Positions 19,515 to 33,244 of a DNA stretch of 64,000 nucleotides are shown here, one piece after another (position 1 is the first letter of the stretch; each line of letters opens with the position of its first letter). The position numbers were made by a program, and so were the translations under genes. Source of the DNA: an uncultured Gammaproteobacteria bacterium. Lineage in GTDB: Bacteria > Patescibacteriota > Microgenomatia > Levybacterales > UBA12049. The stretch is from positions 785,313 to 849,312 of the forward strand of contig CAZDOJ010000001.1 of assembly GCA_964507055.1 (NCBI GenBank), given 5' to 3'. The notes beneath the pieces were generated by a model, which had not been told where the DNA came from, did no database searches, and saw nothing but the letters and a program-made list of their open reading frames with translations.

Positions 19515-19754
19515 TTATCTTAATTGTGTATAATAATTTTTTTTAATATTTAAACCAATATAGCCGTTCAATCCAAATCCTTGTATAGCTAGTCGCTTCA
19601 TCGATTCGACATGCATTGTCCCTGGTCTTACATAATTATATAGATATAAGGACCGATCATTAAACTCTACTTTTATATAGTCACTTCCGATTTCAAACGC
19701 TGCAATGTTTGAGTTCCCGTTTAGGTTTTTGTATGGTTGCATATGATGGCGCAA
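19515..19754 (-). CDS. KTSC-domain-like small protein
   Basis: The 'IKVEFNDRSLYLYNYVRPGT' pattern resembles KTSC (PF13619). Confidence 0.4.
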   Translation of the reverse strand: MRHHMQPYKNLNGNSNIAAFEIGSDYIKVEFNDRSLYLYNYVRPGTMHVESMKRLAIQGFGLNGYIGLNIKKNYYTQLR

Positions 19755-19781
19755 CTATAGTTCACTCTAATTAAATTTTTA

Positions 19782-22034
19782 TTAAATATACTTACTCGTC
19801 AACGAATCTTTCGCATTCTTCAGATCTTTGGGAGTTCCCTTAAACATTACTTCTCCACCTTTGTTCCCACCTTCTGGCCCCATGTCGATGATCCAGTCGG
19901 CATTTCTTATTACGTCCAAATTGTGCTCGATCACAATGACAGTATTGCCACTATCTACCAACCGATTCATGATCTCTAGAAGATGAGTGATGTCACTCAT
20001 GTGTAGACCAGTTGTCGGCTCGTCCATCACATAGATACTTCCCTTTTTGTGGAGTTCACTTGCCAATTTAATTCTCTGGCATTCTCCACCAGACAATGTA
20101 TTAAGAGGTTGGCCTAAAGTAAGATAATTCAGTCCAACATCATTCATTGCTCCCAGTTTCTTCACGACTTCTGGAAGATAGAAAAATTCCAAAGCTTCTT
20201 CAACATTCATTGCCAGAACATCCGCAATTGATTTACCATCCAATTTATACGCCAACACTTCATCTTTGAAGCGTTTCCCATTACAAATATCACACGGTGT
20301 TTTGACACCTTCAAGAAATGCTAGGTCTGTGTAGACAACTCCTTGTCCCTGGCAATTCTCACAAGCTCCTTTGGAATTAAAACTAAACAATCCTGGCTGG
20401 ACTTTATTGGCAGCCGCAAATGCTTTTCGAACATCGTCCATAATGCCGGTGTATGTCGCTGGATTGCTTCTCGAATTTGCACCAACTGCAGATTGATCGA
20501 TGGTAATTGCGTGAGGGTGCTGTTTGAGAAAGACTTGATGAATCAAAGAACTCTTTCCTGAACCAGCAACACCAGTAATCGCTGTCAGAACTCCGGTAGG
20601 GATATCGACGCTAATATTCTTTAAATTATTTACTTTGGCATCTTTGATAGAAAGCGAGCCTTTTGCATTACGAAAAGTTTCTTTAATCGGCATCTGCTTA
20701 TTAAGATGCTTCCCTGTCAATGTATCTGACTTAAGCAAACTTTCAAGTGTCCCTTCGTGAACAATCTTTCCACCATGACTTCCTGCTCTTGGTCCTACAT
20801 CGACAATGTGATCGGCAACATGAATGACATCAGGATCATGTTCAACGACAATTACAGTATTTCCTTTGTCCCGGAGCTTTTTCAAAAGATCATTTAGTCT
20901 ATGCACGTCTCGTGGATGTAAACCAACACTCGGTTCGTCAAAGATATACATAACATCAATGAGACTAGAACTAAGATGCTTTACCATTTTTATACGCTGT
21001 GATTCACCGCCGGATAATGTATCTGTTTCGCGATTCAAACTCAGATATCCCAACCCGATATCGACAACATGCTGCAAGCGTTCCTTCAAGGTCTTTACCA
21101 TCGACTCGGCAGTTGGTTCATCAATCTTCTCGACGACTTTAATCAGATCTCCAACTTCCATTGCTGCGAGTTCTGCGATATTGTTTCCATCAATTTTACT
21201 TGCCAAAACCTTTTGATTAAGTCGTGTACCATGACATTCATTACATGGACCATACTGAAGATATGGAGCAACAGTTTTTTGGGTGCGTTCAGAAAGTGTT
21301 TTTAAATCCCTCTTAATGTATGAGCGATTAAGCTTTTCGACAATTCCGAAATAACTGAGATTCATAGTGTTTTGTTCTCCCATTTGAATTTTGAACTTTC
21401 GATCTTTTCCATAGAGCAATAGATCCATTTCTTCCTTTGTATAATCACGAAGCTTTTTATCATTATCAAAAAATCCTGAAGTTTTATAACTTTCTTTTTC
21501 CCATGCTACAAATAATGGAACTTGTATTGCACCTTCATTGAGAGATTTATCCATATCCCAAAATCCCTCAGTATTAAAACCAATCTTTCTGCCCAACCCA
21601 TTACATGCAAGACACATACCCTGTGGATCATTGAAAGAATATGCATTTGAAAAACCAGCAGAAGGTTTGCCAATTCGTGAGAAAAGTAAACGTAAAATCG
21701 TATAGATATCAGTTATCGTTCCCATCGTTGAATGAGAACCGCCACCCATTTTTTTCTGATCGACCATAATTGCCATACTCAAGTTTTCAATTGCATCGGC
21801 TTCTGGTTGAGAATATTTCGGGAGAAAGTTGCGGACGAACATGCTAAAAGTTTCGTATTCTTGCCTTTTTGCTTCTGTCGCTATAGTGTCAAAAACAATT
21901 GAAGATTTACCAGATCCAGAAACACCAGTAAAAATAGTTATTTTTCTTTTGGGGATTTGCAAACTAATATCTTGAAGGTTATTTTCGCGTGCACCCTTAA
22001 TGACAATATATTCTTGGTTCATAGGAGAATTCAA
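19782..22034 (-). CDS. UvrA-like ABC ATPase (short, class-II UvrA paralog lacking the UvrB-binding region)
   Basis: Two ABC cassettes (Walker A 'GVSGSGKSS' and 'GVAGSGKSS', signatures 'LSGGESQR' and 'LSGGECQR') and Zn-finger CxxC pairs. At 750 aa it is far shorter than the ~940-aa canonical UvrA. Confidence 0.8.
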   Translation of the reverse strand: MNSPMNQEYIVIKGARENNLQDISLQIPKRKITIFTGVSGSGKSSIVFDTIATEAKRQEYETFSMFVRNFLPKYSQPEADAIENLSMAIMVDQKKMGGGSHSTMGTITDIYTILRLLFSRIGKPSAGFSNAYSFNDPQGMCLACNGLGRKIGFNTEGFWDMDKSLNEGAIQVPLFVAWEKESYKTSGFFDNDKKLRDYTKEEMDLLLYGKDRKFKIQMGEQNTMNLSYFGIVEKLNRSYIKRDLKTLSERTQKTVAPYLQYGPCNECHGTRLNQKVLASKIDGNNIAELAAMEVGDLIKVVEKIDEPTAESMVKTLKERLQHVVDIGLGYLSLNRETDTLSGGESQRIKMVKHLSSSLIDVMYIFDEPSVGLHPRDVHRLNDLLKKLRDKGNTVIVVEHDPDVIHVADHIVDVGPRAGSHGGKIVHEGTLESLLKSDTLTGKHLNKQMPIKETFRNAKGSLSIKDAKVNNLKNISVDIPTGVLTAITGVAGSGKSSLIHQVFLKQHPHAITIDQSAVGANSRSNPATYTGIMDDVRKAFAAANKVQPGLFSFNSKGACENCQGQGVVYTDLAFLEGVKTPCDICNGKRFKDEVLAYKLDGKSIADVLAMNVEEALEFFYLPEVVKKLGAMNDVGLNYLTLGQPLNTLSGGECQRIKLASELHKKGSIYVMDEPTTGLHMSDITHLLEIMNRLVDSGNTVIVIEHNLDVIRNADWIIDMGPEGGNKGGEVMFKGTPKDLKNAKDSLTSKYI

Positions 22035-22085: not shown

Positions 22086-23768
22086 ATGGTCCCAAACAAT
22101 CCTGCACAAACAACTCAGCCAACACAACCCGAACAAGTTCCTCAAACACCAACTACAAGTAGATCAAATCATAAGCTCATTATTGGGATCGTTTTAGGAG
22201 CACTCATCCTTACTGTAATTGCTATTGGTTATTTTTTTGTTGCACGTACAAATGCAGCGACTGTCTCTGGATACATTAATTTCACCGCATTAAAACCAGA
22301 CCCACAAGACCAAGGACAAATAGCGTTAAAATACAGGAAGTACGGAACGACGGAAGAGTATAAAAAGATTGATTCACTACCGCAACTACAAGATACTGCA
22401 CCTTGGACATGGACAGAAGCAGAAAATGGACAACCATATGAAGTTATCGCAGAACTTTCTGTTAATGATAAGTTGATAACGACATCTGAGCCACTAATCG
22501 TTACAGCACCTGCAATCAATCAAGAACTCGCTCTCCGTGTAACATGGCATGATTTACCGGTTGAGGTAGTACAAGAGCAAACAACAGCAATCAAGGGACA
22601 TACTATTATTAATGGCTTGATCCCTGCAAGTAGTCGGCTTTTTATCCAGGCCAAAGCTATGGATGGAACTACATTTGAAACAGTAGCGACAATTAACACA
22701 CCTACGAATGATAATCCTTGGGAATGGAAAGATGTAACTCCACTAAAAGATTATTCACTCAAAGGTATCCTCGTCAGTGGGACAACTGTTATCGGGACTT
22801 CGGACATCATGACTGCGGCGGGAGGAGATAACGAAATTGAATTGATGATAAATTCGATGGCACAACCAGATCCAACTCCAACACAAATTATCCAGCCAAC
22901 GGCAAAACCGACTGCGACACCAACGCCAATTATTGTGACAGCTACTCCTGTTATGACTATTACATCCGTACCAACTGCAACTCCTATTCCTACAGAAATA
23001 CCGACACCAACACCAGTTCCGGCAAAGGGCAAAATCTCAGGCAAGATTTTAATCAACGGACCGAAAGATGCAAATACAAGTGTTGTGCTTTTGTCGAGAA
23101 AGCCCGGACAAGGAGATTTCCAAACACTTACAAAAATTGATTATCCAAAACAAGATGGACAAAATTGGGAATGGGATGATGCTACTGTAGGAACTAATTA
23201 TGAAATTATGGCAGAGTTACAGGTGAATAATAATACAACCGCTACTGCAAGATCGCAAGTAGTCGCTGGCCCTGCTAAAAATGTAGACTTCATCTTGAAT
23301 ACAGGAGTTACTGTGCCGACAACAAACGAGACGCCTTCATTGGCAGCATGTACAAATAATCATGACAATCAATGGGATGCCACAATACAATTTCCAAATG
23401 TAAATAATGCAGGAAATTATTGGTTCAAAGTTGGCACAAATCCGAGTTCTGCTGATACATTTAATTCAAAGCAACGGCCACAAACAAATACCGATAAACA
23501 AAATGTGACAATTCGTGTTGATAGTAAAAATCCTTATTTTGCTCAATATGCATTCTCTATTTGTATCAATTGCTCAAGCGATAAGAACTTTTCTAACTTC
23601 TCACATACAGTTCAATTTACATGTGGTGAAGATGGGCCTCCTGCACCGACACAGACTCCATTTCCAACGGCTATACCAACGACAACACCAGTTCCGACAA
23701 AAAAGCCAACATCTACACCTATTCCAATCTTAACAGTGCCTGTTGAGCTGAAACCAAGTCCTCGGTAG
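22086..23768 (+). CDS. Secreted repeat protein with PT linkers and three internal '(P/N/Q)W(T/E)W' modules
   Basis: Signal anchor. Repeated ~110-aa units each contain 'WEW', 'YE(V/I)(I/M)AEL' and 'VN'. Pro/Thr linkers. Confidence 0.55.
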   Translation: MVPNNPAQTTQPTQPEQVPQTPTTSRSNHKLIIGIVLGALILTVIAIGYFFVARTNAATVSGYINFTALKPDPQDQGQIALKYRKYGTTEEYKKIDSLPQLQDTAPWTWTEAENGQPYEVIAELSVNDKLITTSEPLIVTAPAINQELALRVTWHDLPVEVVQEQTTAIKGHTIINGLIPASSRLFIQAKAMDGTTFETVATINTPTNDNPWEWKDVTPLKDYSLKGILVSGTTVIGTSDIMTAAGGDNEIELMINSMAQPDPTPTQIIQPTAKPTATPTPIIVTATPVMTITSVPTATPIPTEIPTPTPVPAKGKISGKILINGPKDANTSVVLLSRKPGQGDFQTLTKIDYPKQDGQNWEWDDATVGTNYEIMAELQVNNNTTATARSQVVAGPAKNVDFILNTGVTVPTTNETPSLAACTNNHDNQWDATIQFPNVNNAGNYWFKVGTNPSSADTFNSKQRPQTNTDKQNVTIRVDSKNPYFAQYAFSICINCSSDKNFSNFSHTVQFTCGEDGPPAPTQTPFPTAIPTTTPVPTKKPTSTPIPILTVPVELKPSPR

Positions 23769-24747: not shown

Positions 24748-25095
24748 TTATTTCCAACGATTCTTTACATCATCCAATGAAGATACAAATAAGTAATCTC
24801 CATGCTTATTACTTTCATAGATAAATGCTTTTAAACTTTCACTTGAAAACTTCGAGAAATCTCCGAGGATAGCCAAACGGACATGATAATTGCTAAATTT
24901 CTGTAGCACATCTCCTAATTTTTTAGTACTTAAATCAAAGAAATCTTTTTCAAAATTATGTTCTCGAAGAACGATGAAGTCCGAAGGAGCATTTGCCATG
25001 ATATCGATTGCGTCATCTGTATTTCTAATTAGGATATCATTGGAAACAATTTCACTAATTTGAATCGTATGCCAATGAATTACTTTGGTATCCAT
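24748..25095 (-). CDS. DUF4180-like small protein, last gene of the prenyl/cyclase unit
   Basis: 115 aa. The 'LQKFSNYHVRLAILGDFSKFSSESLKAFIYESN' block resembles DUF4180. Confidence 0.4.
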   Translation of the reverse strand: MDTKVIHWHTIQISEIVSNDILIRNTDDAIDIMANAPSDFIVLREHNFEKDFFDLSTKKLGDVLQKFSNYHVRLAILGDFSKFSSESLKAFIYESNKHGDYLFVSSLDDVKNRWK

Positions 25096-25144
25096 AAATA
25101 AAGTGTAACATATCTAGCTCTTTCATAAATACTGTACTCGTATA

Positions 25145-26164
25145 TCACTTTTTTCGATTCACCATTTTTTGCAAGAATTCTTGGAGTAACTCTCTCATTT
25201 GAGGATCTTGTGTAAGCGTTGGAATGATTTCCTCTGCAACTTCAATGATATTAGTAGACCATTTTTGAGAATAATTAAGGGCACCTGTTGCTATAAATAT
25301 CGCTCTCACTTTTTCAGATTCCAAATGGCGGATTGAACTACTTCCGTAATACTTATTAAGTATCTTTAATTCATCTTTGGTCGCGTTTCTTGCAGCGTAA
25401 CTTATTAAGAGAGTATTCTTTCCTTCTTTTATATCTGAATTCACAGATTTACCTGTAACTCTCTCATCACCAAAAATACCAATAATATCGTCCTGGATTT
25501 GAAATGCTATTCCAAGCTGTGTACCAAAATTTTCTATACAGGATAGTTGCTTTAAATCAGCACCACCAAGTATTGCACCCACACAAAGAGGAGCTACAAA
25601 ACTATATGTCGCTGTTTTTAGTTCATACATTTTCAAGATATGTTCTTCACTCTTTACCGATACTTTGGATAGTTCAATATCAAGCAACTGTCCGACTATC
25701 GTCTGCTGAATTTTGTTGCAATAAAAATCGATTGCTTTCTGTTTTTGATCAACATTGAAATTGGTATTATTTATGATTTGAGCCGACCAAACAAGACCAA
25801 GATCTCCAAAACAGAGAGCCAGAGATTCACCTTTTTTATCGTTACCAAGAGCAACATGCAAACTTGGTCTTCCCCTTCGTGACCTACCTTGATCAATAAT
25901 GTCGTCATGAATAAGAAGAGCCGAATGAACAACTTCGAAAGCACTTGCAATCTCAAGGATCTGATCATCAACCTTTTTTCCAGCTAGCATATAACCTAAA
26001 CACACTAACATCCCTCTGATCATTTTTCCACCAAATAAACTCTCTGAATAATGGTTATATTGTTTTTCTAAATAATTAATTCGGGGATTTTTTTGTGCAA
26101 CTTGTAGCTGAAGCTTTTGCGTTATTTCTTGACTAATTTGTTGATTAAATTCTTTATAATTCAT
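25145..26164 (-). CDS. Polyprenyl diphosphate synthase (trans-isoprenyl diphosphate synthase; FPP/GGPP synthase-like)
   Basis: First Asp-rich motif 'LIHDDIID', second 'FQIQDDIIG', plus the 'GGKMIRG' and 'RRGRPS' substrate-binding blocks. Confidence 0.85.
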   Translation of the reverse strand: MNYKEFNQQISQEITQKLQLQVAQKNPRINYLEKQYNHYSESLFGGKMIRGMLVCLGYMLAGKKVDDQILEIASAFEVVHSALLIHDDIIDQGRSRRGRPSLHVALGNDKKGESLALCFGDLGLVWSAQIINNTNFNVDQKQKAIDFYCNKIQQTIVGQLLDIELSKVSVKSEEHILKMYELKTATYSFVAPLCVGAILGGADLKQLSCIENFGTQLGIAFQIQDDIIGIFGDERVTGKSVNSDIKEGKNTLLISYAARNATKDELKILNKYYGSSSIRHLESEKVRAIFIATGALNYSQKWSTNIIEVAEEIIPTLTQDPQMRELLQEFLQKMVNRKK

Positions 26165-26167
26165 AAT

Positions 26168-28066
26168 TTACTGATTAGTTATATAAGTATTGAGAAATGA
26201 AAGGGCTCGTTGTTTCTCTTTTCTTGCCGTTATAACAGCATGTTCTTGCTCGTCTATAAATTGCTCTAATATCTCTTTATTTGTAACTATGTCTATGCTG
26301 GAAAGAGCAAGACGTGCTTGATATACATGAAGTTCTATTAAGTCACACACGTCTTCAATTGTTTCATTCCAAAATGTCTGTTGCAGATTTGTAGTCGTCC
26401 TCTGTAGAAGTAATGCTGCAACACTATTTATATGTCCTTTTTTTAGATCACTCTCCCAATCATGTGCATCATCATTTATTTGTCGAGCAATTAAGTAATG
26501 TGAGAAAAAATTAAAGAGAGATGCAACATCATTTGCATACTGATTTTTATTACTTAAAAGTATCAAGGCGACACATCCCAATGCATGTCCCATTGAGCGA
26601 TCGGCGAGAACTTGATATGAGCCATAATTAGGTAAAGAAAGCGAGGATAAGTTCGTCGCAGAATTAAAACGACAATGAGTCACTTCCCATGTGTTTACTT
26701 CTTCCAATCGATCCATAACCGACTGAAAAACTTTTTGAAAGCCAATCTCTTCCTTCAAAATGGAATTAAAAATAATTGTTAATTCTCGAAGACAAATATT
26801 TGCAAGTGGTAAAGATGGGATGTCCGGCTCATTATCAAGAAAGTCATCATAAATTGTATATGCAATCCATCCATAAAGACTTGCTGCCCCAAGTTGTACG
26901 AGAATATTCTTCGAAATTTCTTTCTTATCACTTAAAGATTGATAAAAATAATATGGAAGGAGTGTAATTTGCATCATACGATCTTTCTTCAGTGCTTTTT
27001 CAAGATAACTTAAGCCCCGCTTTTGTAGATTTGGTCCAAGTAACAATATTCTTTTTTTAACAATAGATACAACCTGGTTATGTATGGCATTCTTTTTTTT
27101 ATTTTGATGTACTACTATATTTTCTTTTATTTTTTTGTTGTAAAGAGCATATGCTTCCAAGCAGAATGCTGTTGTTAAAGCTTCCGAACCGGCGACATAT
27201 ACTTTATCTTTTTGAGGGTTAACGCCAGTATAAAATGCTGCTGCGGGCCAACTCCCATCAATCCGCTGTAGCATAACAAGCTCCGCTATCAAACGAGAGA
27301 CCGTACTTGATGATGCACCAAGATTGAGAAGAGAAATAGTTTTTAGAGCAATATCTAAAGATGTTACGGCAGACATTTGTAAAACAATTTTTTGAAGTTT
27401 TTTCCTCGATGAACCTTTTAATACTCGGGAAAGGAAATAAAATGTAGCAAAATGATTCGGATAATATGGTGTTGTAAATATTTTATTATTAATAATTTCA
27501 GTAAATAATTTTGATAACTTTGGCAATTTTATATCTTGCATTTGAAGGAAAAAAGCAATATTAGCATTCACACATACATCCACATCTTTCCATATACCTG
27601 GAGCAGTATTGCTTACTAACCATGTTTTGTACGGACCTCCCTCTTGAGTTTCTACCAATGTCAGAATTTTCACTATATGTGCCAATGCCTCACCAGTAAT
27701 TAGCTTCTGATCAAAAAGATATAAAGCTGAGAGTGTACAGAAAGTATCATCCAAATCGTCAGGATACGCCATTGTTTTAGCTTCTGGGGATTGCCTATCC
27801 CAATAATTCCAGGTCCATGAAGAGCTTTTTTGAGAAAGTAAGAATTTAACAGAACTTTTTATAATGCCATCGGTATTTTTTGAATGCGTTAGATTTGTTA
27901 AGGACTGCATAATGAGAGCCGTTGAGAAGATGGTTTTATATTGTATCCTGCTTTTAAAATTAGTATCCGGAGATGAAAAGCTCGTAAAGCATCCATTTTT
28001 GTCTTGAACTTTTTGTAAATATGTAATTCCTCGTTCTGACGATTTTTGTAAGGAAATCTCAAGCAT
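26168..28066 (-). CDS. Two-domain terpene-cyclase-like protein: N-terminal alpha/alpha-toroid (prenyltransferase/squalene-oxidase repeat) domain with a class-II-like 'DLDDTF' motif, C-terminal domain with a class-I-like 'DDFLD' motif
   Basis: 'PDDLDDTFCTLSALYL' parallels the SHC/CPS 'DxDDTA' catalytic motif. The QW-like repeats are 'GITYLQKVQDKNGCF' and 'LQRIDGSWPAAAFY'. The C-terminal 'IYDDFLDN' and 'NDDAHDWESD' are Asp-rich. Confidence 0.5.
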   Translation of the reverse strand: MLEISLQKSSERGITYLQKVQDKNGCFTSFSSPDTNFKSRIQYKTIFSTALIMQSLTNLTHSKNTDGIIKSSVKFLLSQKSSSWTWNYWDRQSPEAKTMAYPDDLDDTFCTLSALYLFDQKLITGEALAHIVKILTLVETQEGGPYKTWLVSNTAPGIWKDVDVCVNANIAFFLQMQDIKLPKLSKLFTEIINNKIFTTPYYPNHFATFYFLSRVLKGSSRKKLQKIVLQMSAVTSLDIALKTISLLNLGASSSTVSRLIAELVMLQRIDGSWPAAAFYTGVNPQKDKVYVAGSEALTTAFCLEAYALYNKKIKENIVVHQNKKKNAIHNQVVSIVKKRILLLGPNLQKRGLSYLEKALKKDRMMQITLLPYYFYQSLSDKKEISKNILVQLGAASLYGWIAYTIYDDFLDNEPDIPSLPLANICLRELTIIFNSILKEEIGFQKVFQSVMDRLEEVNTWEVTHCRFNSATNLSSLSLPNYGSYQVLADRSMGHALGCVALILLSNKNQYANDVASLFNFFSHYLIARQINDDAHDWESDLKKGHINSVAALLLQRTTTNLQQTFWNETIEDVCDLIELHVYQARLALSSIDIVTNKEILEQFIDEQEHAVITARKEKQRALSFLNTYITNQ

Positions 28067-28085
28067 TAGAGAAAGGGTAGTTTGA

Positions 28086-28107
28086 AAAGATTAAAAAAAT
28101 ATTAAAT
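28086..28107 (-). promoter_or_regulatory. 22-bp element AAAGATTAAAAAAATATTAAAT (copy 1), about 20 nt upstream of the terpene-cyclase-like gene start
   Basis: Exact repeat of 30381-30402, in the same position relative to a minus-strand start codon. Candidate shared promoter or operator. Confidence 0.45.
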
Positions 28108-29511
28108 CTTTTTGAGTAGAGGAAAGGTTATTGTAAAAGTACTTCCGACATTTAATTTTGAATCTACTAAGACTTGTCCCTTAAAATCCTTTGTTACAAT
28201 ATCATAACTAATGGAAAGACCAACTCCAGTCCCCTTCCGATAGCCTTTTGTCGAAAAGAATGGTTCAAATATTTTCTCTAGATCTTTTGCTGATATGCCT
28301 TTTCCAAAATCTTGAATAATTATTTTTACTTCTTCTACTTCTTTTGAAAGAAAGATGTCGACGGTCCTTCTTTTTCTGCGTAATCCATCATAGGCATCAA
28401 TTGCGTTTGAGAGGAAGTTACACATAAATTGGTGAAACTTTAAGGGATTGCCATAGATACGGATAGTCTTAGTGAAATGAAAGCCTACAAGTACCTTATT
28501 CTTTTTTGATTTATAATTAAGTATCTCAATTGCTTCATAGATTTCATTATTAACTGAGAAATATTCAAGTAAGTCCTGATTATTTACTTGCTTTCTTGTC
28601 GATAAAATAAAACTTTCAAGTCGATTTATACCTACAGTTGCTCGAGCAACGATAGCATGCATATCATCAATATTGTTCTTACTACTTTCCAATTGTTTTA
28701 AATTCGCAGATACTAAGTTGACGGAATTAGAAAGGTCATGAAGGAATTCCGAAGCAGACTTACCAAATTCTGCAAACTTATACAATTGAGCAACTCGTAC
28801 TGCTTGCTCTTGCCGCAACGCTTTTGTTTTTTCTTCTACTTTTTGGGCTAAAGAATCCCTCTCTCTTTGTAATGCTTTTTCAGAAAGTCTAGCTCTCTTT
28901 AAAGCAAGTTCACCTTCTCTATTAAATAACCATGATACTATCGCTATTACCAAAAATGTTACTGTAGCGACAATAGTATCGCCCATTGTAAGTTCTGTAC
29001 GCTGCCAAAGTAGTTGCGGTGCTTCGAGGTATACTAATTGTACTATTGTTATCACAGATAAAGATATCCCGATGACTACTGCTACAATAAGAGAGAGCCT
29101 ACTATTGATTAGTATCCCTGAAAAAACAATTATAAGAGCATATGTTAAAAGACCTTGCGGAAAATCAGCACCCCAACGGTAGGCACCCCATGTAGTAAGA
29201 AGATATAAAGAAGTAATAATAATGTAGGAAGCAATATTTGATTTCCCAATTCTTGATAAATAGTAATTAAATAGCAGGAAACAGAGTATGAGTATTAATT
29301 CTCTCGACGCACCTTTAACAGCTAAGTGAAACAATTCGCTGATAAGTGCATCAGCGAGAGCTATACATGTTAAAAGAATAAAGCTCAATAATAGAATATT
29401 GAGAATACGTTCACGCCTAGACTTGTCCTTATTCTTTGAACGAGAATCCACTAAAAGCCTTGCGATTGATACTGTATTTTGAAATACATTTAGTAAACTT
29501 CGTTTTAGCAT
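28102..29511 (-). CDS. Membrane sensor histidine kinase, peptide-sensor (HPK10/AgrC-ComD-like) type
   Basis: About 6 N-terminal TM helices. The phosphorylated-His box 'EFLHDLSNSVNLV' resembles AgrC 'EFRHDYKNHLLVL' rather than HisKA 'HELRTPL'. N-box 'FLSNAIDA', G1 'QDFGKGI', G2 'GTGVGL'. Confidence 0.8.
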   Translation of the reverse strand: MLKRSLLNVFQNTVSIARLLVDSRSKNKDKSRRERILNILLLSFILLTCIALADALISELFHLAVKGASRELILILCFLLFNYYLSRIGKSNIASYIIITSLYLLTTWGAYRWGADFPQGLLTYALIIVFSGILINSRLSLIVAVVIGISLSVITIVQLVYLEAPQLLWQRTELTMGDTIVATVTFLVIAIVSWLFNREGELALKRARLSEKALQRERDSLAQKVEEKTKALRQEQAVRVAQLYKFAEFGKSASEFLHDLSNSVNLVSANLKQLESSKNNIDDMHAIVARATVGINRLESFILSTRKQVNNQDLLEYFSVNNEIYEAIEILNYKSKKNKVLVGFHFTKTIRIYGNPLKFHQFMCNFLSNAIDAYDGLRRKRRTVDIFLSKEVEEVKIIIQDFGKGISAKDLEKIFEPFFSTKGYRKGTGVGLSISYDIVTKDFKGQVLVDSKLNVGSTFTITFPLLKKI

Positions 29512-29568
29512 CAGAACAATTATAAACTTTTTCTCTGTTTACCTGCTATTACCTATTTTGTTAGTAAA

Positions 29569-29676
29569 CTAACTCCATGGGTGAAAAGCTGATTCAGCAA
29601 TAATCTTTTTTTCAGATTTTGCTTTATTATTACGAATAGACTTATTCGTTAATAATTCTTTCATTAAGGATTTCAT
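29569..29676 (-). CDS. Small ORF (35 aa, MKSLMKELLTNKSIRNNKAKSEKKIIAESAFHPWS) between the regulator and kinase genes; candidate pheromone or RiPP precursor
   Basis: AAGGAGGTGA lies 4 nt before the ATG and directly after the regulator's stop codon. The peptide is basic with a single Trp two residues from the C-terminus. Not in the supplied track because it is under 60 aa. Confidence 0.45.
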   Translation of the reverse strand: MKSLMKELLTNKSIRNNKAKSEKKIIAESAFHPWS

Positions 29677-29690
29677 GACATCACCTCCTT

Positions 29691-30359
29691 TCATTCTTCT
29701 ATCTTATACCCATATCCATGTACGGTTTTGATAAGTTTTTTATTATAATTTCTATCAACTTGGTCTCTGAGATATTTAATATGGACATCCACTACATTAT
29801 TATCCGATTCGTAGCTACTTTCCCAAATATGGTCAAATATCATAGAACGGGTTAAAACTCTTCCAGCATTTCTCATCATATATTCTAAAAGGTCAAAATC
29901 TTTTCTTTTAAGTTGGAGCACTTGGTTATTTCTTTTTGCTACCCTTTGTGTGAGATCTATTGTTAGACTATCTACTGCAATGACATTTGAATGAAGTTTT
30001 GGAGAAGAACGTCGTAAAACAGCCTCAATTCTTGCATGAATCTCTTTTTCATCAACTGGTTTTACAATATAGTCATCTGCCCCACTATTGAGTGCTTGAA
30101 CTTTATTAGCAACTTCGCCAGTACCTGTGAGCATAATTATTGGAGTTGTTATACCTTCAGCTCGGAGATCCTTGCAAACTTGTATCCCATCAATATCAGG
30201 TAATTGATAATCAATGATGATCAAACTGTAATCATAGATATATGCCTTATACTCTCCTTCTTGACCGGTGTTTGCAATTTCAAAGATATAATACTTCTGA
30301 AGACCAGAGGCTAAAGTCTCAGCACTTACTTTATCATCCTCTATTAAAAGTATTTTCAT
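29691..30359 (-). CDS. OmpR/PhoB-family response regulator (receiver plus winged-helix output)
   Basis: 'LLIEDD', the 'IIDYQLPDIDG' phospho-Asp region, and the C-terminal 'VVDVHIKYLRDQV...TVHGYGYKI' winged helix. Confidence 0.9.
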   Translation of the reverse strand: MKILLIEDDKVSAETLASGLQKYYIFEIANTGQEGEYKAYIYDYSLIIIDYQLPDIDGIQVCKDLRAEGITTPIIMLTGTGEVANKVQALNSGADDYIVKPVDEKEIHARIEAVLRRSSPKLHSNVIAVDSLTIDLTQRVAKRNNQVLQLKRKDFDLLEYMMRNAGRVLTRSMIFDHIWESSYESDNNVVDVHIKYLRDQVDRNYNKKLIKTVHGYGYKIEE

Positions 30360-30380
30360 ATCTCATTCTATATTACCAAG

Positions 30381-30402
30381 AAAGATTAAAAAAATATTAA
30401 AT
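30381..30402 (-). promoter_or_regulatory. 22-bp element AAAGATTAAAAAAATATTAAAT (copy 2), about 22 nt upstream of the response-regulator start
   Basis: Exact repeat of 28086-28107. Confidence 0.45.
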
Positions 30403-30422
30403 GATTAATGTGTTAATCATTT
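30399..30422. promoter_or_regulatory. Perfect 10-4-10 palindrome AAATGATTAA-TGTG-TTAATCATTT in the divergent promoter region
   Basis: Read directly from the sequence. It overlaps the 3' end of 22-mer copy 2. Confidence 0.4.
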
Positions 30423-30459: not shown

Positions 30460-30873
30460 ATGTCTAAAGGTAGAGCAATTATTATTTTCTTCACGATAGT
30501 AACGATAGTTGCAGTTACGTTTTTCGGATTTAATAAATACAGGCAGCCTCAACAATCAAAGACATTTCATGCAGTTTTTCTCTCAAATGATCAAGTTTAT
30601 TTTGGTAAGGTTGCGGAGGATACCGAGACTAATTTAACGCTTACTGATGTCTACTATCTTAAAGCAAGTACAGACACGACAGCAATAAAAAATCTTACGA
30701 AAGAAAATTCAGCAACAGCTAAATTGGCGTTGGTAAAGCTGGGGGAAGAACTCCATGCTCCAAAAGACAAGATCGCTATTAATAAAGAACATATCTTATT
30801 TACTGAAGAAATGGAATCAAATGGAACAATTATGGATGCAATTAGAAGGTATGAACAAAAAATTTCTCAATAA
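30460..30873 (+). CDS. Hypothetical membrane-anchored protein
   Basis: N-terminal TM. No recognisable motif. Confidence 0.4.
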   Translation: MSKGRAIIIFFTIVTIVAVTFFGFNKYRQPQQSKTFHAVFLSNDQVYFGKVAEDTETNLTLTDVYYLKASTDTTAIKNLTKENSATAKLALVKLGEELHAPKDKIAINKEHILFTEEMESNGTIMDAIRRYEQKISQ

Positions 30874-33244
30874 CATAGCGATTGGATGCACTTTATTTTT
30901 GGGTTCACTAATACAGCCTATGACTATTTTTGCTTCTCCAAAAATTGATGTCGCTCCCCTCAAACTACTAGATCAAGAAACAACAAAGTACATAGGGGGA
31001 GAGGAAAAACCAGTGGCTGTTTGGGAGATGCCAATTGACCAAGATCTTTTAAGAGAATTAGGTCTTATGCAAAATGGTGAAAGCTCTGCACCAATAAATA
31101 CCAACCATATACAATATCTCACAACAGTATTACAGAACGAATCCCTTATTTTACAAGGACGATCACCACTGTACTTTAGAAACTCTTCAAACATCAATCA
31201 GATTTCTATAGAAATTAACACTCCTACACAGAATCGATATATTACATTGCCAGATAGATCTGGAGAAATTACAGTACTTGGACAGACAATCTCAGGAGAA
31301 GAAATTGATGATCGCGGAATTGATTTGGTAACAAAAACTACAGGAGATTATGTGCAATCCGTAGTCTCGGGCAGTGGCATAGCAATATCTGGAGGTACGG
31401 GAAAAGGGATAACAGCAGATCTTTCTCTTGGCGATCTTACCAAAGATTGGATACAATCTGCACCATTTGATATTGTAATTAACAATCCCGATAGCGGTCT
31501 CAAATTAATCGATGCAAGTGGAAATCACTTTGCAAGAATTGCTGTAGATACACTTGCCAATGATGTAACACTGAAATTAAGCGGAGCAGGAGGAACACTC
31601 CTTACTGATGATAACTTCTCATCACTTGTTGACTTACCTGATGGATTAGATAACCTCTCTGGACTTACAGATCTTGTTGCTGCACGTTCAAACTTAGGAC
31701 TCGGAGATATTGCTACTCAAAATACAAACGACTTCCTTACTGTTTCAAATAATCTCTCGGAGTTAACGGATATAACACAAGCACGTAGCAATTTAGCACT
31801 TGGGGACATCGTGACACAAAACAGCAGTTCTTTTTTTAGTACAGCAAATAATTTATCAGAATTAACTGACACATCAATCGCTCAAACAAATTTAGGTTTA
31901 GGGACTATGGCAACAGAATCAGTAGAAAATTTTTTAAATGCGAACAATAATCTTTCGGAGATTACAGACTCTGCACTTGCCCGAAGTAACTTAGCCCTTG
32001 GAAGTATCGCTATATATGATAATGATGATTTCTTTAATGTATCAAATAATCTTGCTGAAATTACTGATATGAGTATGGCTCGGGGTAATTTAGGACTCGA
32101 AGAAATGGCGACACAACATATTAGCAGTTTCCTTCAAACAGCAAACAGCTTGTCAGAAGTTGATCCATCAACTGCAAGAACAAACCTTGGATTAGGCGAT
32201 ATTGCAACACAATCAATAGGATCATTTTTACAAGTCAGTAATAATTTAGCTGAGATCGACCCAATGGCTGCAAGAATAAACTTAGGACTTGGATCAAGTG
32301 CTATACAAAATGCTAATGCCTTTTTACAAACTACAAATAACTTATCTGAAATTGCAGATCCTTCGATTGCAAGAATGTCACTCGGTTTAGGAACAATTGC
32401 GACACAACCACTTTCAAATTTTGTGCAGACAACAAACAACCTTTCAGACATAAGCAATACAACAATTGGAAGGACTAATTTAGGACTTGGTTCGATTGCC
32501 ACGCAAAGTGCTTCAAGTATCGCACTTACGGGAGGAACACTTAACGGTGTAGCAATCGGAGCAACTACACCAGCAAATGCGGCATTTAGCACTCTCACCT
32601 CGTCAGGCAATACGGTACTCGGATCATCTGGGAGTACAACAATTGGTAATGGATCCAGTACCGTCCAAATTTCATCGAACGGACTTAATATTTCATCAAG
32701 TGGAGCAATTTCAGGAGTAACAGGATACACACAATCATCGGGCAATTTTGCATTGTCGGGTAATGGAAGTCTTACTACGGGTACAGGCAATGTATCAATA
32801 AATGGAGATACGACAGTAGCATCGGGAAAAACAGTAAATCTCACATCGAATGACAGTCTAAGAGTTGGTGGAAGCATCGTCCCACAAACAGTGACAATTG
32901 TTGTACCAATGCTTGCAACCCTCTCAGTAGGATTGAACGATCAGGTAGTTTTTGTTTCTGATAATGTCTATGCATTAGCAGGTGCACGATGTGTCTATTC
33001 TGCTGCTGCGTCGATTGGAGCAAATCTTCAAGTGACTGTTGATGCAGGGACCGCTGCACCAGGGACAGGAACAGACCAACTCACAGCAAGTATTAATCTC
33101 GGAAGCACATTAAATACTGTTTATACAGGAACTGTGATTGGATCACCTACTCCTATCAATATAAACGATAAAGTAAGTATAGACTTTTCAGGAACACTCA
33201 TAGGAATTCTTGGAAGTTGCACAATCACACTCAAAAGAACATAA
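30851..33244 (+). CDS. Large secreted repeat protein with nine tandem ~33-aa 'NNLSE(I/L)TD-x3-AR(S/T)NLGLG-x2-ATQ' repeats (tail-fibre-like) and a Gly/Ser/Thr-rich C-terminal domain
   Basis: Start moved to the internal Met that begins a signal peptide (MNKKFLNNIAIGCTLFLGSLIQPMTIFASP). The repeats span about 31620-32530. The 'AR.NLGLG' periodicity is reminiscent of phage tail-fibre repeats. Confidence 0.55.
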   Translation: MNKKFLNNIAIGCTLFLGSLIQPMTIFASPKIDVAPLKLLDQETTKYIGGEEKPVAVWEMPIDQDLLRELGLMQNGESSAPINTNHIQYLTTVLQNESLILQGRSPLYFRNSSNINQISIEINTPTQNRYITLPDRSGEITVLGQTISGEEIDDRGIDLVTKTTGDYVQSVVSGSGIAISGGTGKGITADLSLGDLTKDWIQSAPFDIVINNPDSGLKLIDASGNHFARIAVDTLANDVTLKLSGAGGTLLTDDNFSSLVDLPDGLDNLSGLTDLVAARSNLGLGDIATQNTNDFLTVSNNLSELTDITQARSNLALGDIVTQNSSSFFSTANNLSELTDTSIAQTNLGLGTMATESVENFLNANNNLSEITDSALARSNLALGSIAIYDNDDFFNVSNNLAEITDMSMARGNLGLEEMATQHISSFLQTANSLSEVDPSTARTNLGLGDIATQSIGSFLQVSNNLAEIDPMAARINLGLGSSAIQNANAFLQTTNNLSEIADPSIARMSLGLGTIATQPLSNFVQTTNNLSDISNTTIGRTNLGLGSIATQSASSIALTGGTLNGVAIGATTPANAAFSTLTSSGNTVLGSSGSTTIGNGSSTVQISSNGLNISSSGAISGVTGYTQSSGNFALSGNGSLTTGTGNVSINGDTTVASGKTVNLTSNDSLRVGGSIVPQTVTIVVPMLATLSVGLNDQVVFVSDNVYALAGARCVYSAAASIGANLQVTVDAGTAAPGTGTDQLTASINLGSTLNTVYTGTVIGSPTPININDKVSIDFSGTLIGILGSCTITLKRT

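Follow-up and report, generated by a model that had tools for sequence, protein, structure and literature searches.

The window analyzed here is a stretch of 64,000 nt of contig CAZDOJ010000001.1 (assembly GCA_964507055.1, positions 785,313-849,312, forward strand) from an ultrasmall bacterium of the candidate phyla radiation (CPR), or Patescibacteria (GTDB Patescibacteriota; Microgenomatia; Levybacterales; UBA12049). On its minus strand lies a gene cassette that may encode a peptide signaling circuit resembling that of ComX, in which a small Trp-containing peptide would be modified with an isoprenoid. An earlier interpretation of the locus (the sequence-only reading) had placed six tandem open reading frames (ORFs) in this region. 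All six were found where it had placed them, and the gaps of 35 nt between the kinase and enzyme genes and of 3 nt between the enzyme and synthase genes were in line with it. The features, in window coordinates, are as follows.

29691..30359, minus strand: OmpR/PhoB-type response regulator, 222 aa (Response_reg E 3e-24, Trans_reg_C E 1e-24)
29569..29676, minus strand: small ORF, 35 aa, MKSLMKELLTNKSIRNNKAKSEKKIIAESAFHPWS, predicted precursor peptide, with the Shine-Dalgarno sequence GGAGGTGA 4 nt upstream
28102..29511, minus strand: sensor histidine kinase, 469 aa (HATPase_c E 1.9e-19; His box H258)
27122..28066, minus strand: N-terminal domain of the 632-aa enzyme, residues ~1-315, monodomain class II terpene cyclase with invariant YPDDLDDT (DxDD-type catalytic acid)
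26168..27079, minus strand: C-terminal domain of the enzyme, residues ~330-632, trans-isoprenyl-diphosphate-synthase-like, with YDDFLD and ARQ-x-N-DDAHD; predicted Trp prenyltransferase
30385..30401, minus strand: putative operator 1, TTTAAT-N5-TTTAAT (core of the repeat at 30381-30402), ending 25 nt upstream of the regulator ATG
28090..28106, minus strand: putative operator 2, TTTAAT-N5-TTTAAT, overlapping the kinase stop codon, 23 nt upstream of the enzyme ATG
19770..19786, minus strand: third exact TTTAAT-N5-TTTAAT, about 28 nt upstream of the ATG in a 79-aa ORF (19515-19754, minus strand)
25145..26164, minus strand: canonical polyprenyl diphosphate synthase, 339 aa (PF00348 E 1.6e-54), accessory and outside the conserved core
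24748..25095, minus strand: DUF4180 protein, 115 aa (PF13788 E 1e-29), a neighbor outside the system

The conserved unit consists of four genes: the OmpR-type regulator, the 35-aa ORF, the multi-pass histidine kinase, and the 632-aa enzyme. One genome per species was scanned, a relative turned up in 233 species, and the best 80 loci were compared together with the window (81 regions). These loci come from Microgenomates, Parcubacteria, Saccharibacteria, Doudnabacteria, and CPR2, with some records under other taxonomic labels. Gene context was determined both by tblastn searches with the six proteins of the window and by grouping every ORF of the loci into clusters, and the results agreed. The order regulator, small ORF, kinase, enzyme was present in about 70 of the 80 loci and was retained in all of these lineages while the flanking genes all varied. 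The kinase gene directly preceded the enzyme gene in 78 of 81 regions, the regulator gene lay upstream of the kinase gene in 67 of 81, and each locus retrieved had one copy of the cassette. Beyond the cassette, ORF clustering found no other conserved gene in the 81 regions, transporters and proteases included. The 632-aa protein had about 1,000 homologues, and those with a named source came from Patescibacteria metagenome-assembled genomes; a full HMMER scan (E <= 1e-30) put the family at no fewer than 1,423 clusters at 50% identity. The family has so far been seen only in Patescibacteria, where it is phylum-wide.

The gap between the regulator and kinase genes was 150-300 nt in almost every locus and held an ORF of 34-45 codons. 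The window ORF has a full span of 29569-29694 (41 codons) with two in-frame ATGs, the second of which, at 29676, lies behind AAAGGAGGTGA. The homologues start at the position of ATG 29676, so the 35-codon form with a ribosome binding site, as proposed in the sequence-only reading, is the real one. Neither the 35-aa nor the 41-aa peptide matched any Pfam or NCBIfam model. The peptides have the form M-K-x-h-h-K-K-h-L-T-D-K-x-A-R-N, then about 15 variable residues, P-W, and 1-6 final residues; the window peptide has the conserved N-terminal helix motif, and its P-W lies one residue from the C-terminus.

A profile hidden Markov model (HMM) built from 55 peptides was searched against six-frame stop-to-stop segments of all loci and of the whole window. 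It gave exactly one match per source, in 69 of the 80 loci and in the window, always just upstream of the kinase gene and on the same strand, and 15 of the matched loci were outside the training set. The loci without a match were broken at contig ends, except L027, which still encodes ...KKLLKKVFINKVIRDTMAISAFVVIIMETTLVWS and lacks a canonical start codon. Trp was present in 70 of 70 peptides, 1-6 residues from the C-terminus, and was the sole Trp in 67; Pro stood directly before it in 55, and a Shine-Dalgarno core of 5 nt or more preceded 39. The small ORF is thus conserved in syntenic loci, on which the sequence-only reading had depended, and it is almost certainly a real gene. A chance ORF was rejected, and so was a transmembrane protein, as the middle segment is too short, and is polar in Saccharibacteria.

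Pfam and NCBIfam scans of the 632-aa enzyme (26168-28066, minus strand) gave only a weak, sub-threshold match to SQHop_cyclase_C. Both a cyclase fold and a prenyltransferase-like fold were nevertheless present, and we hold the assignment of a class II cyclase joined to a synthase-like domain with high confidence. The AlphaFold2 model had a mean predicted local distance difference test score of 90.9, and the family alignment contained the invariant motifs YPDDLDDT in the N-terminal half and YDDFLD and ARQ-x-N-DDAHDWExD in the C-terminal half. The closest solved relatives of the N-terminal domain are drimenol and drimenyl-diphosphate synthases, and its relationship to drimenol synthase was detectable in sequence (profile E 6e-16). 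D106 of the enzyme aligned pairwise with the site of the D333N mutation in a crystal form of the drimenol synthase AsDMS, and we take the residue at this site to be the catalytic acid of AsDMS. The sequence-only reading had described a two-domain terpene cyclase; the cyclase part held, and the second domain is instead a synthase-like transferase.

This C-terminal domain has the trans-isoprenyl-diphosphate-synthase fold, with a first Asp-rich motif and Gln-x-x-DD, and the invariant Q529-x-x-D532-D533 lies in register with the FQIxDD motif of synthases. The domain had no significant match to any solved structure among PDB sequences, and PF00348 was matched neither by the 632-aa protein nor by its relatives. 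Comparison of the transferase-domain family with canonical synthases gave an hhalign probability of 6.7%, the agreement being only in fold and motif register. Neither GGKxxR nor RRG, both carried by the adjacent synthases, was found in the C-terminal domain sequences of the family alignment, which argues against chain elongation. The ComQ, PalQ, and ChrPC P-domain prenyltransferases, which resemble trans-isoprenyl-diphosphate synthases, all target Trp, and a conserved Gln directly upstream of the second Asp-rich motif, common to ComQ, PalQ, ChrPC, and Ord1, is repurposed for indole recognition (PMC13290415).

Some homologues of the enzyme, including P0007, P0010, P0018, and P0021, carry a precomputed PF28380.1 match; a Pfam rescan of P0007 gave no such match. 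Other family members match PF07678 (TED domain of alpha-macroglobulins) because the alpha/alpha-toroid fold is common to both.

A variant of the cassette, in genomes of the Falkowbacteria type, has no cyclase. A metagenome-contig scan centered on the kinase was swamped by the generic kinase-core pattern and yielded a single true orthologue, in locus L084, where the kinase is followed by a 278-aa protein matching the C-terminal domain only. This protein is a member of a standalone transferase-domain family of 46 sequences, several of them labeled Falkowbacteria, and the family aligned to columns 374-639 of the fusion family (hhalign probability 100%, E 4e-43). In three of three contexts examined (L084 2846-6011, L164, and L165), the order was regulator, small ORF, kinase, and a standalone transferase domain of 275-290 aa. 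The small ORFs of these cassettes end in ...NPGTPWRD, ...NPGIPWRD, and ...NPGTPWRY, and LLTDKxxR, present in the peptides of all cyclase-bearing cassettes, is absent from them. The PW-peptide, the kinase, and the synthase-like domain are thus the constant partners, with the cyclase as an add-on. This constancy is the strongest argument that the C-terminal domain, which is in every cassette and is the sole enzyme of the cyclase-less variant, is the ComQ analogue rather than the canonical synthase, and that the peptide is its substrate. The cyclase-less cassettes adjoin a divergently transcribed gene for a PBP2-type transpeptidase.

The canonical polyprenyl diphosphate synthase encoded 3 nt past the enzyme gene was correctly recognized in the sequence-only reading; the role of isoprenyl transferase that the parallel with comQXPA implied there for it was not borne out. 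It carries GGKMIR, DDIID...RRG, and FQIQDDIIG, and its nearest NCBIfam models are of the geranylgeranyl diphosphate (GGPP) synthase type, which only hints at a chain length. As a ComQ analogue it was rejected, since its isopentenyl diphosphate-binding and RRG motifs are intact and it is not conserved in the cassette. A polyprenyl synthase gene was adjacent in about 16-20 of the 80 loci, in three arrangements: downstream on the same strand, as in the window; between the regulator gene and the small ORF (L013 5292-6329, L015, L057, and L063; PF00348 E 2e-54, second motif FQIxDDVMN); and downstream on the opposite strand, with another synthase type (L039 and L054). In the window synthase and its orthologues in L005, L016, L020, L024, L025, L058, L064, L071, and L073, the second Asp-rich motif (FQIxDDxLG[V/I]FGD) consistently has Gly at the place of its third Asp, which is a family trait and not a lesion of the present genome. 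The repeated juxtaposition of synthase genes fits a donor-supplying role, and the adjacent synthase likely supplies the prenyl donor.

The kinase has about six membrane segments, followed by a coiled coil, the His box, and the ATPase domain, and it lacks an extracytoplasmic domain of appreciable size. Hydropathy showed five clear hydrophobic segments and one weaker one. Among 66 orthologues, the polar motifs RRExILNILL, WGxDxP, and SWLxNRE were conserved inside the membrane segments, and the coiled coil was followed by FHDLxNPL (LHDLSNSV in the window) and then by standard N, G1, F, and G2 boxes. The polytopic layout proposed in the sequence-only reading therefore stood, while the AgrC/ComD-like His box proposed with it found no specific support: HATPase_c was the only Pfam domain recognized, the best NCBIfam matches were kinases of the AtoS/ZraS/NtrB type, and HisKA_3 gave no match. 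HATPase_c_5 (AgrC-type GHKL) scored E 3e-4 and 20.9 bits against a 22-bit cut-off, and some orthologues do register it. The sensor domain alone, used as a homologue query, returned one irrelevant match.

The regulator has both domains expected of the OmpR type, Response_reg and Trans_reg_C. The identical 22-bp element that had been noted before both transcription units, ATTTAATATTTTTTTAATCTTT, is exact at 28086-28107 and 30381-30402, and its core is the direct repeat TTTAAT-N5-TTTAAT with an 11-bp periodicity. Regulators of the OmpR/PhoB family typically bind direct repeats that are spaced by one helical turn. The window holds three exact sites, where 0.06 would be expected. Within 120 nt before the regulator gene, the repeat was exact in 22 of 49 loci and present with at most one mismatch in 28 of 49, compared with exact sites in 3 of the 226 intergenic segments used as controls. 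Its position there is -24 to -65, in Microgenomates and Saccharibacteria alike. Where the kinase-enzyme gap was 25 nt or longer, 7 of 12 gaps carried the motif (at most one mismatch) 21-34 nt before the enzyme ATG. The 1.17 Mb of loci contained 48 exact sites, and 36 of them were at the two cassette positions. An autoregulation architecture, as a conserved cis-element, is thus well supported, and we think it quite likely that the regulator binds it. For the autoinduction proposed in the sequence-only reading, this means that the repeated element proved to be conserved upstream of the regulator gene and often of the enzyme gene, and that the regulator is the presumed binding partner.

Both window promoters have a TAnnnT hexamer 9-10 nt past the second half-site, and the ATG comes 7-10 nt later. 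This spacing suggests that the leaders are very short and that the activating site overlaps the -35 position. A consensus promoter and terminator scan of the locus gave no more sites than shuffled sequence. The third window site comes directly after the stop codon of a UvrA-like gene, and the 79-aa ORF behind it, which has no Pfam match, may be a further target of the regulator. In the Saccharibacteria loci L059 (4872-4888) and L073 (4822-4838), an extra exact operator precedes a gene that was judged by eye to be Crp/Fnr-like (224-226 aa) and that directly precedes the regulator gene. One exact site each was also present before the gene of a probable small heat-shock protein (L042) and that of a probable haem-copper oxidase subunit I (L066), both again identified by eye.

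These components suggest the following circuit. The 35-aa ORF would be translated into a precursor peptide, and the C-terminal domain of the enzyme would ionize a prenyl diphosphate and, in the manner of ComQ, PalQ, and ChrPC, alkylate the indole of the only Trp of the peptide, that of the P-W motif. The prenyl donor, probably C15-C20, would come, in the present genome, from the adjacent polyprenyl synthase. The class II cyclase domain could then protonate the attached chain through the Asp of its DxDD motif and cyclize it, giving a peptide with a polycyclic terpenoid. This lipopeptide, possibly trimmed, would reach the membrane-embedded sensor of the ~6-pass kinase in its own or a neighboring cell. 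The kinase would phosphorylate the OmpR-type regulator, which would bind TTTAAT-N5-TTTAAT at its own promoter and, in the present genome, also at the second promoter before the enzyme and synthase genes, closing a positive feedback loop.

We give a probability of about 0.55 to this ComX-like circuit, the most economical account of the locus, in which a cyclase-transferase fusion would produce a pheromone with a cyclized terpenoid on its Trp and an OmpR-type regulator would provide positive feedback. Its parts differ in strength. The peptide is probably the substrate of the enzyme, and the chance that the product is the ligand of the kinase is close to even. The ComQXPA-like logic of the sequence-only reading (Trp precursor, prenyl enzyme, polytopic kinase, and regulator) was thus upheld by conservation as far as the parts are concerned, and their role in signaling is the presumptive element. 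A wider suggestion is more tentative still: a single ancient autoinducer circuit may be common to most major lineages of Patescibacteria, with a ~35-residue peptide bearing a polycyclic terpenoid on Trp, the product of a cyclase-transferase fusion, and a dedicated membrane kinase. It could serve as a common language between cells or from symbiont to host surface that governs part of the episymbiotic life cycle, with the lineage-specific residues around Trp as its dialects.

Several observations weigh against the ComX-like circuit. ORF clustering of the 81 regions found no exporter or leader peptidase conserved beside the cassette, so that release of the peptide is an assumption; to our knowledge, ComX likewise has no such adjoining gene. 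The link between enzyme and peptide comes from co-occurrence and analogy. Autoregulated promoters are common in ordinary two-component systems and by themselves are no sign of quorum sensing. In addition, a few members of the enzyme family weakly match the class I terpene-synthase Pfam models Terpene_syn_C_2 or Terpene_synth_C.

The last observation is also what would be expected if the enzyme were a bifunctional synthase whose product is a cyclic terpenoid in free form, perhaps one that stands in for a membrane lipid. Its class II domain would then cyclize farnesyl diphosphate (FPP) or GGPP, the C-terminal domain would remove or ionize the diphosphate, the two-component system would regulate the pathway, and the small protein would be a kinase regulator like MgrB or SafA. 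Such an enzyme would fit with the closest solved relatives of the N-terminal domain, which use free FPP, with the prenyl synthase that is sometimes adjacent, and with the envelope state that intramembrane-sensing kinases often monitor. However, the cyclase-less cassettes keep the PW-peptide together with the synthase-like domain, which alone has no obvious terpene-forming role, and an invariant P-W near the C-terminus with variable flanks looks like an acceptor site, which a kinase-binding helix does not need. The C-terminal domain also carries the signature of Gln and second motif reported for Trp prenyltransferases, and monodomain cyclases of the MstE type act on prenylated aromatics (PMC13290415). 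We therefore regard a free terpenoid as unlikely. It seems more improbable still that the cassette is simply a biosynthetic cluster whose product is an antimicrobial lipopeptide and whose two-component regulator is specific to that pathway, even though terpenylated ribosomal peptides are treated as natural products (PMC13290415) and lipidation often confers membrane activity. One cassette per locus, kept across a phylum of reduced genomes in an enzyme family of this size, is a pattern that suits a housekeeping regulatory module better than a weapon, and ORF clustering found no immunity, transporter, or protease genes conserved alongside.

A different question is whether a prenylated and cyclized peptide would leave the cell that makes it. 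It might stay as a cofactor or cis modulator of the kinase in the producer membrane, or act as a surface lipopeptide in host attachment or interaction. The missing conserved exporter or protease gene would agree with this, as would the wholly membrane-embedded sensor of the kinase; a C15-C20 polycyclic terpenoid on a short peptide would presumably partition strongly into membranes, and Patescibacteria are typically host-attached (PMC11665869). Nothing speaks directly against a non-diffusible peptide. Nevertheless, the positive-feedback wiring and the precedents of ComX and PalX favor an autoinducer, and the residues after Trp, which vary between lineages, resemble the diversification of specificity in pheromone systems, so that we consider retention in the producer rather improbable.

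A large part of bacterial diversity belongs to Patescibacteria, whose genomes are tiny and most of which are uncultured. If the ComX-like circuit is real, it provides a candidate cell-to-cell signal for these poorly understood bacteria, and a four-gene signaling module kept throughout the phylum would be a concrete, testable way into how they sense each other or their hosts. Genetically tractable members exist among Saccharibacteria. The circuit would also add a very large family of terpene-cyclizing peptide maturases with unusually small precursors, for which the natural pair of cassettes with and without the cyclase would be useful in dissecting the chemistry, and the phylum-wide operator TTTAAT-N5-TTTAAT gives a basis for reading out the regulon.

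Other genes in the neighborhood were recorded as well. The DUF4180-like ORF was rightly identified in the sequence-only reading, but its inclusion in the system was rejected: none of the 80 loci carries a DUF4180 homologue, which was present only in near-identical contigs. On the plus strand, 30755-33244 encodes an 829-aa protein without a meaningful Pfam match, in which many tandem ~30-residue copies of a motif resembling NNLSE(I/L)TDxxxARxNLGLGxxATQ precede a C-terminal part rich in Gly, Ser, and Thr. It overlaps the end of a 137-aa ORF (30460-30873) with an N-terminal hydrophobic segment. A 560-aa protein at 22086-23768 (plus strand), judged by eye to be a probable surface protein, has an N-terminal membrane anchor and long linkers rich in Pro and Thr and matches no Pfam model.

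The sequence-only reading had supposed that no such system was described outside Bacillus-type comQXPA. Precedents are in fact known. In Paenibacillus alvei, the PalP-PalX-PalQ cluster combines a kinase with a precursor that ends in Trp and with a distant transferase of the isoprenoid-synthase superfamily (PMC10853753), and StheQ/StheX of Sphaerobacter is a ComQ-type pair prenylating the Trp second from the C-terminus (bioRxiv 10.64898/2026.08.29.745113). ChrPC and NctPC are described as fusions of a prenyltransferase and an MstE-like cyclase that prenylate Trp of a ribosomal peptide (C10-C20) and then cyclize the chain (PMC13290415, citing Hubrich et al., Chem 2024). In the literature searched, with Hubrich et al. 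2024 outside this comparison, we found no paper that links the cyclase-transferase enzyme class or such a cassette with Patescibacteria, and a 2024 overview of Patescibacteria biology makes no mention of two-component, quorum, or isoprenoid signaling.

Like ComQXPA, the cassette co-encodes a synthase-fold enzyme, a precursor with Trp near its C-terminus, a polytopic kinase, and a cognate regulator, whose functions are assigned by analogy. As the sequence-only reading had stated, it differs from comQXPA in gene order (regulator, peptide, kinase, enzyme), in regulator family (OmpR-type, not NarL-type), and in the additional class II cyclase domain. Moreover, the kinase is not of the HisKA_3 type, the transferase domain is not recognizable by sequence as a member of the PF00348/ComQ family, and the precursor is unrelated to ComX. 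The cassette shares with PalPXQ the clustering of a kinase, a precursor with Trp in its terminal region, and a distant Trp prenyltransferase, which in the cassette is a predicted one, and PalQ was itself once annotated merely as a terpene synthase (PMC10853753). PalX, however, has an NHLP-type leader and a strictly C-terminal Trp, whereas the cassette peptides extend 1-6 residues past Trp in 70 of 70 cases; the three described pal genes list no regulator, whereas the cassette has a regulator and an operator, and PalQ is without a cyclase domain. The cassette would, by analogy, work like ComQXPA and PalPXQ, but these differences place it outside both systems.

With autoregulated two-component systems of the OmpR/PhoB type, the cassette appears to share the receiver and winged-helix regulator and a direct repeat of ~11-bp periodicity at the regulator's own promoter. 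The Agr/Com (HPK10) receptors have a kinase core of the HATPase_c_5 type, a model for which the window kinase scores just under the cut-off, and a LytTR regulator, where the cassette has an OmpR-type one. The substrate of MstE is a prenylated benzoate, and that of AsDMS, which has a fused phosphatase, is FPP; the cassette cyclase is instead fused to a synthase-like domain, and its presumed substrate is a prenylated peptide. The nearest counterpart in domain content is ChrPC as it is summarized in PMC13290415. Both combine, in one polypeptide, a transferase resembling trans-isoprenyl-diphosphate synthases and an MstE-like monodomain class II cyclase with a catalytic acid; both have a first Asp-rich motif and, shortly before the second, a conserved Gln; and for both a Trp-containing ribosomal peptide is encoded nearby, the acceptor of ChrPC being an internal Trp with C10-C20 donors. 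By that description, the 632-aa enzyme has the structure that defines the transferase-cyclase maturases of 2024. Compared with ChrPC/NctPC by description rather than by sequence, it has the cyclase at the N-terminus and the transferase at the C-terminus, its precursor is only ~35 aa, it is invariably tied to a dedicated kinase, regulator, and operator, and its family is phylum-wide in Patescibacteria rather than sporadic.

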